Under the pieces are notes generated by a model, which worked only from the letters and a program-made list of their open reading frames with translations, was not told the DNA's origin and made no database searches. Shown here piece after piece: positions 10,361 to 38,441 of a stretch of DNA of 64,000 bases. Within the stretch, counting starts at the first letter, position 1, and every line of letters starts with the position of its first letter. Made by a program: the position numbers and the translations under genes. The stretch is from a virus (lineage: Duplodnaviria > Caudoviricetes): the IMG/VR virus record IMGVR_UViG_3300047283_000054, one strand, 5' to 3'.

Positions 10361-10406
10361 AGAGATAGTATAGCAGTACTATCTCTGAATGTCAATAGTA
10401 TTTATC
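10361..10406 (-). promoter_or_regulatory. gp32 promoter region: TTGACA-17-TATACT overlapped by an inverted repeat, plus upstream GATAAATA
   Basis: AGAGATAGTA-tagcag-TACTATCTCT palindrome covers the -10; late-like motif just upstream of the -35. Confidence 0.6.
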
Positions 10407-13596: not shown

Positions 13597-13613
13597 AATG
13601 TATTTATCTAACT

Positions 13614-15173: not shown

Positions 15174-15179
15174 AGAGAG

Positions 15180-15187
15180 TATTTATA
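15180..15187 (-). promoter_or_regulatory. T4-type late promoter TATAAATA
   Basis: Exact T4 gp55 consensus 6 nt upstream of the terminase ATG. Confidence 0.7.
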
Positions 15188-17548: not shown

Positions 17549-17575
17549 TATAATTCCTAGACTATAATGTATTTA

Positions 17576-17848
17576 TCAGTTTCCAAACATACCTTTGGGT
17601 TGTTGTATGATAATAGGACGCTTACTACGCTGGATTTCTTGTAGTGCTTTGATAGCTTGTATCTTTACTTGATTATCTGAACTCTTAACCATTTCGGTCA
17701 AGGCTGCTATACGTGCGGCTTCTGCTACAGTAGCATCTCTACTTAATGACTTCTGTGCTTCTACATAGACTGGATAATTGTCTACTGTTGCACACCCGGT
17801 CAATAAACATAATGCTAATAATATACTACTATTTTGCAATGTTATCAT
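17576..17848 (-). CDS. Small lipoprotein
   Basis: Signal peptide with lipobox LLTGC; the likely start is ATG 17848. Confidence 0.6.
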   Translation of the reverse strand: MITLQNSSILLALCLLTGCATVDNYPVYVEAQKSLSRDATVAEAARIAALTEMVKSSDNQVKIQAIKALQEIQRSKRPIIIQQPKGMFGN

Positions 17849-33973: not shown

Positions 33974-34002
33974 GTGACAGTAATGTGACAATCGTGTGAA
34001 AC
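33974..34002 (-). promoter_or_regulatory. Pho box (three 11-bp-spaced half sites)
   Basis: GTTTCAC-acga-TTGTCAC-atta-CTGTCAC upstream of pstS matches the PhoB CTGTCAT/C-N4 repeat. Confidence 0.8.
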
Positions 34003-34009
34003 CAAAAGA

Positions 34010-34031
34010 AAAGGGCAACTAGTTGCCCTTT
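34010..34031. terminator. Perfect 22-bp palindrome; terminator after tmRNA
   Basis: AAAGGGCAACTAGTTGCCCTTT. Confidence 0.75.
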
Positions 34032-34372
34032 CTGTTATTTTCTGTTACGAGGTATAACTACCCTAAGCGGCGTAATCTCACGCGGCTAAGGCAAAATGTT
34101 CGTCATTTGCATTTACGGTTTTTGCTTCTTCGGCCGGGAAACTCCCAACCCTAACGGCTTCTACCTTGCCGGACTGTCCATTTCGTTACTCTTGACCCAA
34201 TCGATCCTGTGTCAGGCCCATCATAAAAACACAATACCAAAGTAAATTTATCTAGAATACCAAAGTAAATTTATCTAGAATACCAAAGTAAATTTATATG
34301 TTCTTATGGTGGACCTGGCGGGCACTGCCCCCGCGTCTTGAATCCTTTTTACTCTACTTCATACAGTCTTAA
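34032..34372 (-). ncRNA. ssrA: Circularly permuted (two-piece) tmRNA; tag (A)ANDEHFALAA
   Basis: The acceptor piece, with T-arm GCGGG-GGCAGUG-CCCGC and 3' CAGGUCCACCA (ends 34307), comes before the coding piece that starts GGGCCUG (34219). The acceptor stem has 7 bp with G3:U70. Tag ORF GCA AAT GAC GAA CAT TTT GCC TTA GCC GCG TGA at 34110-34078. Confidence 0.93.
34233..34297. repeat. 23-bp tandem repeat (2.8 copies) in the tmRNA intervening segment
   Basis: AATACCAAAGTAAATTTATCTAG at 34233-34255 and 34256-34278; partial copy at 34279-34297. Confidence 0.95.
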
Positions 34373-34373
34373 C

Positions 34374-37300
34374 TCATAAGTATTTAGTATTAAAATACTT
34401 TTGCAACCAAGGCCAATCATAACTTAAACGTAATTTGTCTAACTCACCATTGACTTGTTCAAAGTATTCTACAGCATCTAATGCACCATTGATACTATAT
34501 TGGGCAAACGGGCCTTCACCTTTAGTCAACCAAGCATCTAGTCTATATTTGCTATCGTCACTAGTACTTGCACGTAGTTTGATTGCTTCTCTAAACGCAG
34601 TACGCCAAGTACTCCATTCGTCTGTATTAAACATTGCTACACCACTATTCATATCAACAACTTCGTGTTCGTTGTCTAATGTGAAGTCTAATCCAGTACC
34701 TTGATTACCTAACACAATCTTCTTATTGTAAGCAATCATAGCTTGGTGGCCGTATACTAATCCATTAACAGGGTTAGTAGCGTGGAAGATGTAATGCTTA
34801 GGTACTTGAAGTCTATCAGGTTGCCAAGAGAAGTCAAATTTATCATTAACACGCAACTTAGCAAATACAGTGAACATCCAAGGTGTGGTACTTGCTTCAG
34901 CTGCCGCATGATAAGCCTGCACACGACCATTGACTCCATCAACTCTAACGACTCTATTATTTAATCCCTTAGTCACTTTTAGCAAGTGTTCATAGTTCTC
35001 GTCAGATCCAGTTTCACCATTACTTAGGAAGACTATATCTAACGGTTTAGATTTAGTTAGAGATTTAGCACGTGAGATGTATGGGTAATCATATAACTCA
35101 TTCTCTACATAATCTTTAGCTTCTTTGGGAACAATTATTCGTGTTGCACCCGTACTTGTAATCAAAATGTTCTTAGTATCAGGTGTCCACAAACTAATAG
35201 GTTCAATATCTTGTATATCTAATCCTTTGTTATCTTCCGTGACAAACGTAGCATAAGGCCAATCAAAATCAGTATGAATATTAGTGACATGGGTATCTTC
35301 TTTCGTAATAATTATAGGTGCGGGTAATCGTTTTACTCTTTGATGTTGATTGTAGTTAACCTTTTCATAGTCTTCCATCATAATCATATCATCAATCAAT
35401 GATTTGAATTTGTTTACATCAATTAAAAATGTGTCTCCAAATTTCTGTTTATCACTAGGGAACACATGTAATTGCTCTCTAGCATATGGATCACATATAT
35501 AGCTGAAGTCAAAATTTTCATAATCACATATACTTGAACAGATCCAAAGATAATGTTCTTTTCTAGTGTCTAATTTTTTTAATATCTCTTTGAATGTTTT
35601 TAGGTAGCTATGCTTATAGTCAACTGTAGTTATAGATTTATTATCAATCTTAGATTTGATAACTTCATTTACATTTGACTTGTTTCCATGATTGATTAAT
35701 ATCACATCATACAATGAACCTTCTGCTTTGGCTCTCTTATCTTTAACAAAGTTAAGCATACTTAAATGTTCAATGATTTTGACATATTTGGTATCTTCAT
35801 TGAATGAGTTCTTGTTCACCAAGTATGTATTACCCCAATGAGTCCATTGACTACCGAACACATGAATCATTCGTTTTTGCCAAGGATTAGGGTTATAGTC
35901 AAAGCTAAACTCAGTATAATCTAATTCACTAGACAATACCCAAAACAGTTCAGTTGTACTTTTAGATGTGCAACGTGATATTGTTTCTACCCATGAATTC
36001 AAATATCTAGTTTTCTGAATAGCAGGAAATTGTAATTTTAGTTTTTCAAATCTATACCTGCTTTCACTATTGCCCTTATCAACAAAGAACATATCACGGT
36101 GTATTATCTTTTGAATAACTTCGTCAGTAGTTTCAACTACAATGTTTTCTCTTGCGGATTCATCATAGTCTAATGTAATTGTTGTTTTAAAGTCAGGTAC
36201 AATGTAAACAGGACCATCAGTACCCCACTCATATCGTGCAGGATCTTTGTTAGGATTAGGTCTCCAAGAGAAGTCAAATGCTTTCAAGTCTAATTCATTA
36301 CGAACCAACCAGTTAGTCATATTCACTTTAGGAGTAGCAATGATAGAGTCTAAGAATTTGTACTCAGTCGCACCCTCAACACGATACATCACAGTGGGTT
36401 CTGTTTCAGCATCATTCCATTTATTACCAAATACATAGATGAAAGGTGGCTCTAATGGATCAGGTCTCCAGCTAAAATCAAACTTAGAAATAGACAACAA
36501 TATTTCCCACTGAGGATCCTTCTCAGTAGATTTTACCATAGCGACAGCATCCTCTATGTATTTGTATTCAGTTGCCCCGGGTACAGTATAAGATACAGTG
36601 GGTTCCATGAAGCAATTGTTCCATTGATTACCCCATACGTATATGTATGGTGGACTGTCAGGGTGTGGTCTCCAACTAAAGTCAAAGTTATCTACTGGGA
36701 TAAGTGTCTCCCAGTTTTCAGTAGTAGGTGCAACATTAGCAGTTACATCATTAATATATTTCTTTTGTGTTGCCCCAGGCACAGTATAGATAACAGTCGG
36801 CTCAGTAACAGCATCAAACCATTGATTACCAAACACGTAGATGAACGGTTCTTCTGTGGTATCTGGATGCCAACTATAGTCAAAATCTTTTACAGGAATT
36901 AATGTTTCCCAATTATCTTTGTTTGATAATGCTTTTGCCTTTGTTACATCAACATATTGTATATCGCTATCTTCTGTGCATCCGACTGCATAGAACTTAG
37001 GACCGCCTGTTCGTTGCCATTGCGTTCCAAATTGATATATCAAAGGTGCGTGGTCTATATCAGGATGCCAACTAAAATCAAAATCAGTTGTATCAATACC
37101 TTCAGGTATTGTCCAATGCATCTTATCTTGTTTGGCTGTTGCTATCTGTGCATCAATATATTTTATTTCGGTTGCACCAGGTACAACATATCTAGGGCCT
37201 CCGGTGCGTGTCCATTGGTCAGGAAATTGATAGATGAATGGTTCTTCCGTCGAATCAGGATGCCAACTAAAATCAAATTTAGATTGGTCTATATTTTTAG

Positions 37301-38441
37301 GTACTTGCCAATTTTCAAATTCTGTACAAACAACTTCTGCTTTTAATGTATCAATATATTTTATATCTGTTGCTCCGAGAACTACATATCTTGGTCCACC
37401 TGTTTTTTGCCATTGTGTACCAAATTGATATATGAACGGTGGGTCATGCGGATTAGGTTCCCAACTAAAGTCAAATTTATTCTGAAACATATTAGTAGGT
37501 ATATCCCAGTTATCCATGCATGGATTACGTTTGACACGTTCTTCCATGTACTTGTATTCAGTGGCACCTTCTACGTTGCGTATAACACTAATCTTATCTT
37601 CAGGTTTGTTCCATTGATTACCCCAAGCATAGATATATGGTGGCGCAGTTGGATCAGGTACCCATGTCATATCAAATGATGACGGGTCTATATCTTCTAA
37701 TGCTTCAAAGTCAGCCGGTCTAGCTGCCAATTTAGGTACAATATTTTCAATGAACTTACGTTCAGTTGCACCTTCTACGTGATACTCTATCGTTGGCATC
37801 ACACTTGCTGGATACTGATTATTGCCAAATACATAAATGTATGGTGGCGCAGTTGGATCAGGTCTCCAAGTGTAGTCAAAATCTGCCGGCTCATATATAA
37901 TATTGAACAAGCGAGGCATTGATAATAATGTAGCCAATGTATCTGTTATATATTTTTTATCAGTAGCTCCCGGTACATGGTATTCAACTGTTGGCATGAT
38001 AGTACCGGGATACCACTTGTTACCCCAGACATAGATATAGGGGGGATCACTTGGGTCTGGGTGCCACTTAAAATCAAATTTATCTTTTTCAATATATTCA
38101 ATTATTTTCCAGTTACTTGTTACTTCATCTTTAAGAGCTATAGGATCAACATCAGCACGATATATTGTTACAGCATCTATATTGGTCGAGCATAACCAAG
38201 TACCACTGTCTTTTTGATAGGGGCTAGGCCATACGTTGTTGTGTTCTTCTGCCCATACATCTTCATCGGGAAGAAAGTCAAAGTCCCAATCCCAATCAAA
38301 ATCTTTATAATTACATTGTTCGTTGATTACCCAAAAATGTTCTGTTGTGCATTGGCGTTTTGCATCAGATAAATCTGTTGCAAATCTTTCTCTAGGGTGA
38401 ACGTTAGGTTTTTCTCCGAAATAAAATACATCTCTTAGCAT
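34374..38441 (-). CDS. 1355-aa tandem-repeat protein with degenerate GT-A-like domains
   Basis: About 10 repeats of FDFSW.P.....P.IY.(F/W)G.QW...P...V.GAT..KY; the C-terminal domain is homologous to 62357-63310. Confidence 0.7.
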   Translation of the reverse strand: MLRDVFYFGEKPNVHPRERFATDLSDAKRQCTTEHFWVINEQCNYKDFDWDWDFDFLPDEDVWAEEHNNVWPSPYQKDSGTWLCSTNIDAVTIYRADVDPIALKDEVTSNWKIIEYIEKDKFDFKWHPDPSDPPYIYVWGNKWYPGTIMPTVEYHVPGATDKKYITDTLATLLSMPRLFNIIYEPADFDYTWRPDPTAPPYIYVFGNNQYPASVMPTIEYHVEGATERKFIENIVPKLAARPADFEALEDIDPSSFDMTWVPDPTAPPYIYAWGNQWNKPEDKISVIRNVEGATEYKYMEERVKRNPCMDNWDIPTNMFQNKFDFSWEPNPHDPPFIYQFGTQWQKTGGPRYVVLGATDIKYIDTLKAEVVCTEFENWQVPKNIDQSKFDFSWHPDSTEEPFIYQFPDQWTRTGGPRYVVPGATEIKYIDAQIATAKQDKMHWTIPEGIDTTDFDFSWHPDIDHAPLIYQFGTQWQRTGGPKFYAVGCTEDSDIQYVDVTKAKALSNKDNWETLIPVKDFDYSWHPDTTEEPFIYVFGNQWFDAVTEPTVIYTVPGATQKKYINDVTANVAPTTENWETLIPVDNFDFSWRPHPDSPPYIYVWGNQWNNCFMEPTVSYTVPGATEYKYIEDAVAMVKSTEKDPQWEILLSISKFDFSWRPDPLEPPFIYVFGNKWNDAETEPTVMYRVEGATEYKFLDSIIATPKVNMTNWLVRNELDLKAFDFSWRPNPNKDPARYEWGTDGPVYIVPDFKTTITLDYDESARENIVVETTDEVIQKIIHRDMFFVDKGNSESRYRFEKLKLQFPAIQKTRYLNSWVETISRCTSKSTTELFWVLSSELDYTEFSFDYNPNPWQKRMIHVFGSQWTHWGNTYLVNKNSFNEDTKYVKIIEHLSMLNFVKDKRAKAEGSLYDVILINHGNKSNVNEVIKSKIDNKSITTVDYKHSYLKTFKEILKKLDTRKEHYLWICSSICDYENFDFSYICDPYAREQLHVFPSDKQKFGDTFLIDVNKFKSLIDDMIMMEDYEKVNYNQHQRVKRLPAPIIITKEDTHVTNIHTDFDWPYATFVTEDNKGLDIQDIEPISLWTPDTKNILITSTGATRIIVPKEAKDYVENELYDYPYISRAKSLTKSKPLDIVFLSNGETGSDENYEHLLKVTKGLNNRVVRVDGVNGRVQAYHAAAEASTTPWMFTVFAKLRVNDKFDFSWQPDRLQVPKHYIFHATNPVNGLVYGHQAMIAYNKKIVLGNQGTGLDFTLDNEHEVVDMNSGVAMFNTDEWSTWRTAFREAIKLRASTSDDSKYRLDAWLTKGEGPFAQYSINGALDAVEYFEQVNGELDKLRLSYDWPWLQKYFNTKYL

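Follow-up and report, generated by a model that had tools for sequence, protein, structure and literature searches.

The question raised by this locus is whether a phage carries a working two-piece tmRNA of its own and from which of the known permuted tmRNA types such an RNA is derived. The DNA analysed here is a 64-kb stretch from an IMG/VR virus record (the window, to which all positions refer), in which a first-pass annotation had proposed a permuted tmRNA gene combining betaproteobacterial and alphaproteobacterial traits. Judging from the sequence evidence given below, we consider it highly probable that the locus encodes a functional two-piece tmRNA of a jumbo phage and belongs to a phage-borne branch of the beta type, in which the elbow of the RNA has undergone repeated change and is alpha-like in the present copy.

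The window comes from a jumbo phage and encodes TerL, a UvsX-like recombinase, a gp32-like SSB and a thymidylate synthase (ThyA), as well as PstS, a carbamoyltransferase, a MoxR ATPase with a VWA partner and radical SAM enzymes near the tmRNA. The minus strand carries nearly all of the genes, and the GC content is approximately 35%. TerL is about 50% identical to that of Sinorhizobium phage Phosso (469 kb) and Pseudomonas phage PA5oct, which together with RsoM2USA are the nearest cultured relatives, and IMG/VR yielded at least 597 confirmed relatives, with contigs of up to 524 kb. TerL, UvsX, SSB and these relatives thus identify the DNA as phage-derived, as the first-pass annotation had assumed. 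Neither the tmRNA (blastn) nor the surrounding 20 kb (megablast) matched any of 50,697 GenBank phage records. Therefore, no close copy is present in cultured phages, and relatives were found via proteins and covariance models. Upstream of the carbamoyltransferase, positions 40851-63310 hold a long run of similar ORFs of approximately 400 aa, several of them with weak radical SAM/SPASM matches.

Detection and organization of the tmRNA gene

ARAGORN predicts a permuted "tmRNA*" with the tag ANDEHFALAA at 33987-34399 on the minus strand, its sole gene call across the whole 64-kb window; no tRNA gene was found anywhere in it. The Rfam covariance search returned RF04321 (tmRNA_permuted) with 114 bits (gathering score 47, E 1.7e-21). 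RF01850 (beta_tmRNA) was matched over its full length (model positions 1-331) with 90.4 bits and E 5.5e-26, a narrow margin over the gathering score of 84, and is the best match within the tmRNA clan for the window copy, in a search that reports the best clan match only. No riboswitch was matched in the window at Rfam gathering scores. The permuted phage tmRNA of the first-pass annotation, which had named Infernal with Rfam models and ARAGORN as a check, is borne out by both programs above their thresholds, with an RF04321 score far beyond chance. The gene and its surroundings comprise the following features:

34374..38441, minus strand: upstream ORF of 1355 aa, function unassigned, stop 5 nt before the tmRNA
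34381..34386, minus strand: TAAATA motif, 12 nt 5' of the first helix, in the final codons of the upstream ORF
34307..34368, minus strand: acceptor piece of approximately 62 nt (ARAGORN, Rfam and covariation; predicted 5' end), with the P2c 5' strand GACUGU, the P2a 5' strand GAUUCAA, the T-arm, the 3' acceptor strand CAGGUCC and the encoded ACCA end
34318..34334, minus strand: T-arm with the stem GCGGG/CCCGC and the non-canonical 7-nt loop GGCAGUG (alpha-like; RF01849 consensus GGCgGUA)
34220..34306, minus strand: intervening segment of 87 nt, whose ends AAGAACAUA/UGUGUUUUU pair and lengthen the acceptor stem
34233..34297, minus strand: perfect tandem repeat of 23 nt in 2.8 copies, within the intervening segment
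34005..34219, minus strand: coding piece (Rfam, ARAGORN, covariation and fold), with GGGCCUG, the D-loop analogue ACACAGGAUCGA, the P2a and P2c 3' strands, the PK1-region hairpin, the extra hairpin, the tag ORF, helix 5, the 3' pseudoknot and the terminator
34132..34150, minus strand: extra hairpin GGUUGGG-AGUUU-CCCGGCC, specific to the family and placed after the PK1-region hairpin and before the resume codon
34078..34110, minus strand: tag frame with the resume codon GCA, ANDEHFALAA (34110-34081) and the stop TGA (34080-34078)
34034..34063, minus strand: 3' H-type pseudoknot with S1 GGGU/ACCU, S2 GUUAU/AUAAC and the conserved loop CGUAACAGAA
34009..34032, minus strand: intrinsic terminator, a hairpin with a U run behind it

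The gene order is permuted, as the CCA end at 34307 precedes the 5' acceptor strand at 34219, both on the minus strand. The acceptor piece ends there in ...CAGGUCCACCA (also written GACGCGGGGGCAGUGCCCGCCAGGUCCACCA), and the intervening segment terminates in the conserved leader UUUUAUGAU. When the minus strand was read again, the structural details claimed for this RNA were recovered: the 7-bp acceptor stem with G3:U70, formed by GGGCCUG (34219-34213) and the acceptor piece; the helices between the pieces, GACUGU (34368-34363) with ACAGUC (34177-34172) and GAUUCAA with UUGGGUC; the resume context UAAAU-GCA followed by the tag and its stop (34110-34078); and the terminator, a hairpin at 34032-34009. 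The minimum free energy fold of the precursor recovered the T-arm, acceptor stem, spacer-closing stem, extra hairpin, helix 5 and terminator (z = -3.94). In the alignment, the extra hairpin is an insert relative to the Rfam models.

Conservation and covariation in related phages

In a survey of related phages, as proposed by the first-pass annotation, at least 120 IMG/VR contigs proved to contain an identical 31-nt acceptor 3' piece, and the helices covary across relatives. In the 104 contigs with full flanks, the 5' strand lies 27-382 nt beyond the acceptor piece, and the coding pieces amount to 64 distinct sequences. Among 72 further loci that were fetched via the C-terminus of the upstream ORF, 27 have a tmRNA at most 1.5 kb downstream of this C-terminus, which indicates a conserved genomic site.

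Covariation was assessed in a MAFFT alignment of 45 distinct family members, for which the helices P2c, P2a, T-stem, acceptor stem and spacer-closing stem were specified by hand. In these five helices, 91.5% of the cells are paired compared with 80.5% after shuffling, and both sides have changed in 24 of the 34 pairs. The covariation score is 0.310 against 0.128 for shuffled alignments (0 of 500 shuffles as high) and at most 0.092 for slid controls. The G3:U70 pair is invariant (45/45 family members and 82/82 in a wider set), while adjacent pairs covary. Within the same 45 members, P2a is paired in 95.6% with both sides changed in six of seven pairs, P2c in 92.9% with both sides changed in four of six pairs, and the T-stem in 100% with three covarying pairs. 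Across relatives, compensatory changes were also seen in the extra hairpin, including GC to AU exchanges (17/52), and in S2 of the pseudoknot, for example GGUAGGUU/AACCUACC and GCAAGUUGA/UCAACUUGC. RNAalifold applied to the concatenated pieces recovered the tRNA-like helices only and not the P2 and pseudoknot helices, which were specified by hand and tested by pair counts.

The tags of the relatives drift, yet they remain degron-like (ANDEQFALAA, ANDSQFALAA, ANDAYFGEDRLAA, ANDSRFLMAA) and follow the pattern AND...(F/Y)xxAA. Covarying helices and degron-like tags kept across relatives point to a functional RNA under purifying selection that is neither a relic nor a decoy. The two-piece tmRNA gene is real and, as far as sequence comparison can tell, almost certainly functional. 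With regard to individual loci, ARAGORN reads the tag of L155 as ETQKRHFGAFSLINNA, and L152 has a long frame beginning with ANKAS; these aberrant or longer frames may be miscalls or true tag expansions.

Type of the tmRNA and variation of its elbow

The first-pass annotation had described a betaproteobacterial-looking tag on an alpha-like architecture. This holds for the two loops, since the T-loop GGCAGUG and the D-loop AGGAUCGA are alpha-like, but not for the overall architecture, which is of the beta type according to the RF01850 match. GGCRGU was correctly named as an alpha-type T-loop: the consensus T-arm of RF01849 reads GGGGGCgGUACCC. The window copy resembles the alphaproteobacterial tmRNAs of RF01849 (Caulobacter type) in its non-TPsiC T-loop of the GGCRGUA kind, its D-loop AGGAUCGA and its 3' motif ACCUnGnAACAGAA. 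It differs from them in the final base of the T-loop (G instead of A) and in its stems, body and short tag, which are not alpha-like, and its best clan match is beta. The consensus 5' half of RF01849 is GAAAuAGGAUCGAC, and the window counterparts are GGGGGCAGUGCCC for the T-arm and GACACAGGAUCGAU for the 5' half. The alpha loops (GGCRGUA and the D-loop AGGAUCGAC) are close to, but not identical with, those of the window (GGCAGUG and AGGAUCGAU).

Two-piece tmRNAs of betaproteobacteria go back to Sharkady and Williams (2004), as cited in PMC9004378. The window copy resembles the betaproteobacterial RF01850 in its permuted order and 3' pseudoknot-like region, and its P2 strands, the PK1-region hairpin CCGGC...GCCGUUA, UAAAUGC, the tag (one residue off the consensus ANDEHFAMAA) and the terminal hairpin all fit this model. 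Differences are the T-loop (GGCAGUG versus UUCGAUU), the D-loop (AGGAUCGAU versus GGUUUCGAC), the extra hairpin before the resume codon, the longer hypervariable spacer and the location on a phage. The canonical beta loops, GGUUCGAUUCC for the T-loop and GGUUUCGAC for the D-loop, are absent from the window and present in the relatives L081 and L084 and in RsoM2USA.

The relatives score between 84 and 129 bits on RF01850. Those with a canonical T-loop belong to the same family, occupy the same genomic site, have near-identical bodies and reach 92-129 bits. When 20 relatives were subtyped with Rfam, beta was the best model in nine (up to 129 bits, some of them with GGCAGUG) and alpha in seven. 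L081 and the window copy agree in T-stem and acceptor stem, but the loops of L081 are UUCGACU and UUGGUUUCGAC. L083, from a 524-kb phage, has UGCGAAU and AAAAGUUUCGAC, and its body is almost the same as in L082, whose loops are those of the window. Other pairs found in relatives are UUCGAUU with GGUAAUCGAU and GGCAGUU with AGAUAUCGAU, and the pairs closing P2a change together with the loops (CAA/UUG versus CUG/CAG). Identical tags occur with different elbows (ANDSQFALAA, ANDELFALAA, ANASNDEVFALAA and ANDSVYSLAA). In a maximum-likelihood tree of the adjacent ORF with 14 rows, the alpha-like label requires six changes, at least four of which are forced by well-supported branches.

The first-pass annotation had suggested a separate phage-specific permuted lineage, which would have arisen by a permutation event of its own or as an ancient alpha/beta chimera and would thus be no offshoot of the bacterial beta type. 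Such an origin would fit the split of homologous family members by Rfam (7/20 alpha, 9/20 beta), the alpha model as best clan match of L082, and the distribution of the window-type T-arm GG-GGCAGUG-CC, which was found in no tmRNA across one genome each of 185,579 bacterial and archaeal species. In addition, true alpha-type tmRNAs at the same site, described below for the L266 group, show that recombination partners exist. However, the resemblance to the alpha type is limited to two loops, and the flanking stems do not differ from those of L081 with its canonical loops. Body, tag and terminator match RF01850 from end to end, and relatives with a canonical elbow reach 129 bits on the beta model. 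Near-identical relatives with canonical loops and the interspersed loop types favour beta-type descent over a separate permutation event, and we consider an independent lineage improbable. The sequences are most economically read as a beta-type lineage that branched off in phages and has a fast-changing elbow, a beta origin that is based on Rfam consensus lines and one cultured relative (RsoM2USA).

Two matches to the T-arm in actinobacterial MAGs were dismissed as chance, as they came without any tmRNA or tRNA call. The loci L266, L268, L269 and L275 have a true alpha-type tmRNA approximately 0.8 kb downstream of the same upstream ORF (RF01849 96.8 bits, T-loop GGCGGUA, tag AANDNNVDLALAA), so that tmRNAs from different lineages can occupy this site.

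In a permuted gene, the entire tRNA-like domain is contiguous, and one short recombination tract could therefore exchange it. An exchange of the elbow via short recombination tracts between co-infecting phages is plausible; the identical flanking stems of L081 and the window copy equally allow a stepwise or convergent change. We propose only tentatively, and with more doubt than confidence, that the elbow, i.e., T-loop plus D-loop, is a swappable module that occurs in alpha-like and canonical-like versions on near-identical beta bodies, with at least four well-supported switches. If the switching were adaptive, for example because it fits the RNA to different host SmpB types or protects it from an elbow-targeting factor of a host or rival, these phages would offer a natural experiment on tmRNA-SmpB recognition. 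The coupled change of T-loop and D-loop on a constant body could reveal which features of the elbow are needed by SmpB and the ribosome. Caution is also advisable when the host class of a phage tmRNA is deduced from the alpha and beta subtype models of Rfam. No description of a mixed, repeatedly switched elbow was found in the literature.

Unlikely alternatives: decoy or host-derived remnant

A tmRNA-like molecule might also act as a decoy or inhibitor, with a tRNA-like domain that soaks up host SmpB and blocks host trans-translation without any tagging. There is a precedent in mycobacteriophage DS6A, whose RNA consisting of the tRNA-like domain only inhibits tmRNA (PMC4131195), and the unusual T-loop of the window copy could alter the use of the RNA. 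In contrast, the tag ORF, the resume context, the in-frame stop in a hairpin and the degron-like C-terminus are kept in at least 64 distinct coding pieces. Synonymous and conservative tag changes accumulate, and the pseudoknot and P2 helices covary. None of these features would be needed by a decoy. We therefore hold a decoy function to be very unlikely. The view that the gene is a host-derived remnant, either a piece of an attachment site or a host ssrA that was captured recently and does nothing for the phage, takes account of tmRNA genes being common integration sites that leave fragments in prophages (PMC4383910; PMC9004378). It is effectively refuted by a complete and covarying gene that follows the same ORF at a conserved site in 27 of the 72 related loci, by its presence in cultured jumbo phages of the lytic type as well as in at least 120 phage contigs, and by the lack of an integrase among the proteins scanned and of the window T-arm in any tmRNA of the bacterial species genomes scanned.

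Comparison with known phage tmRNAs

The novelty implied by the first-pass annotation was overrated, because two-piece tmRNAs of phages have already been published (PMC9004378; PMC7162821). Buchholz et al. (2022; PMC9004378) described one in the OM43 phage Melnitz, for which they also reported a glutamine riboswitch, and 53 unique two-piece tmRNAs are given there for 18,146 phage genomes, 50 of them aquatic. tmRNAs and SmpB were found in huge phages by Al-Shayeb et al. (2020; PMC7162821), and a tmRNA database of 2025, with roughly 12,000 permuted sequences, lists 79 sequences from phages (PMC11915505). Phage two-piece tmRNAs being known, the mixed, swappable elbow is the only new angle of the present locus, and a modestly new one.

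Melnitz and the pelagimyophages resemble the phage of the window in having a complete permuted ssrA; Melnitz is a lytic, T4-related aquatic myophage without smpB. A TAAATA-type motif upstream is a further common trait, and the T-loop of Melnitz, GGCAGUA, is of the alpha type. Unlike the window copy, the tmRNA of Melnitz has an alpha-type body and the long tag ANDNYVPVDYALAA, and no similarity between the two genes was detectable by blastn. The two tmRNA genes are separate acquisitions.

RsoM2USA and Phosso belong to the same broad phage group as the window and likewise carry one permuted tmRNA each and no smpB. RsoM2USA, whose host is the betaproteobacterium Ralstonia, has a homologue of the 1355-aa ORF upstream of the window tmRNA, and its own tmRNA is of the beta type (RF01850 92 bits) with a canonical T-loop and the tag ANDSRYAVAA. 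The tmRNA of Phosso is a true alpha type (RF01849 108 bits) with a 410-nt spacer and the tag ANDNVSTKVALAA. Both genes lie on the minus strand in GenBank gaps without an annotated feature, at PV764938.1 349596-350198 in Phosso (L208) and at MG752970.1 331728-331923 in RsoM2USA (L287). RsoM2USA is not mentioned in those supplements of the Melnitz paper (PMC9004378) that were examined. One tmRNA is on record for Sinorhizobium phage AP-J-162 (PMC11242549). In Atu_ph07 and PA5oct, no tmRNA was found, which for Atu_ph07 agrees with PMC11242549. The unannotated permuted tmRNAs of the cultured phages RsoM2USA and Phosso make the role of such an RNA in infection testable at the bench.

Presumed dependence on host SmpB and proposed mechanism

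SmpB was searched for as PF01668, which was detected in the control genomes. None was found among 20 ORFs of 84-252 aa in the window, as the first-pass annotation had claimed, nor in eight related or comparator phage records: five related records from IMG/VR, one of which spans 524 kb and has a completeness rating of 100%, and the complete genomes of Phosso, RsoM2USA and Melnitz. With no phage SmpB found, the RNA must work with the SmpB of the host, if it works at all. A very large family of uncultured jumbo phages thus joins those with a ribosome-rescue RNA of their own that presumably relies on host SmpB.

We propose that a single precursor is transcribed, either by read-through of the long late operon that precedes it or from a late-type promoter with the TAAATA motif, and that transcription would stop at the intrinsic terminator. 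The paired spacer ends would extend the acceptor stem, and tRNA-processing enzymes of the host would excise the spacer, with RNase P cutting at G34219 and 3' trimming to the encoded CCA. The expected products are an acceptor piece of approximately 62 nt and a coding piece of approximately 190-215 nt, joined by P2a and P2c. Host AlaRS would charge the RNA via G3:U70, and host SmpB and EF-Tu would bring it to stalled ribosomes. The use of host SmpB is proposed because no smpB was found in the phage; its binding is only assumed, because the T-loop of the window copy is devoid of T54/Psi55 and A58 equivalents. Translation would resume on GCA and append ANDEHFALAA, a tag with the canonical ...LAA degron, leading to proteolysis of the stalled products. 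The probable benefit is that ribosomes are freed and truncated products and amino acids recycled during mRNA degradation and bulk late protein synthesis. A counter-defence role of the phage tmRNA, by comparison, is pure speculation.

TAAATA occurs at the same distance in 40 of 87 unique upstream sequences, compared with 1% in the background, and is also present upstream of the tmRNAs of Phosso and Melnitz. From its sequence and position, it is possibly a late promoter of the T4 type. The motif overlaps coding sequence, so that its conservation may be driven by the protein. No sigma-70-type promoter was found upstream on the right strand, and WTAAATAC is not enriched across the window (14 found versus 15.3 expected). 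On the minus strand, ATAAATAC occurs at 13600-13607, 15179-15186, 17569-17576 and 10398-10405, in each case a few bases before the start of the terminase gene or a neighbouring gene. These four copies before late-type genes such as TerL are consistent with a T4-type late promoter.

The intervening segment

The spacer between acceptor and coding piece varies from 23 to 410 nt among 87 unique sequences. In 72 of the 81 spacers of at least 40 nt, the first 16 and the last 20 nt form a spacer-closing helix of eight or more contiguous pairs, which starts 0-2 nt past the CCA, stops 4-6 nt short of G1 and covaries in sequence. The final bases are usually UUUAUGAU, UUUUGAU or UAUAAU. Among the 87 spacers, the 23-nt tandem repeat was found only in the phage of the window; it is therefore probably the result of replication slippage in an unconstrained spacer, and a functional role was rejected for it. 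The idea that the spacer houses a tRNA gene was likewise discarded, since ARAGORN finds none in the 87 sequences.

Five of the 87 spacers (L128, L197, L093, L095 and L124) contain one or two hairpins with a canonical T-loop, for example AGUGG-UUCAAUU-CCACU and UGAGG-UUCGAAU-CCUCA, which received no tRNA call from ARAGORN; the tmRNA proper in these loci has GGCAGUG. These T-arm-like hairpins may be left over from an older T-arm or may serve as signals for processing. In some relatives, a tRNA gene adjoins the tmRNA, as identified with RF00005 at positions 727-798 of L108 (minus strand, 75.8 bits) and 2827-2898 of L214 (plus strand, 35.7 bits).
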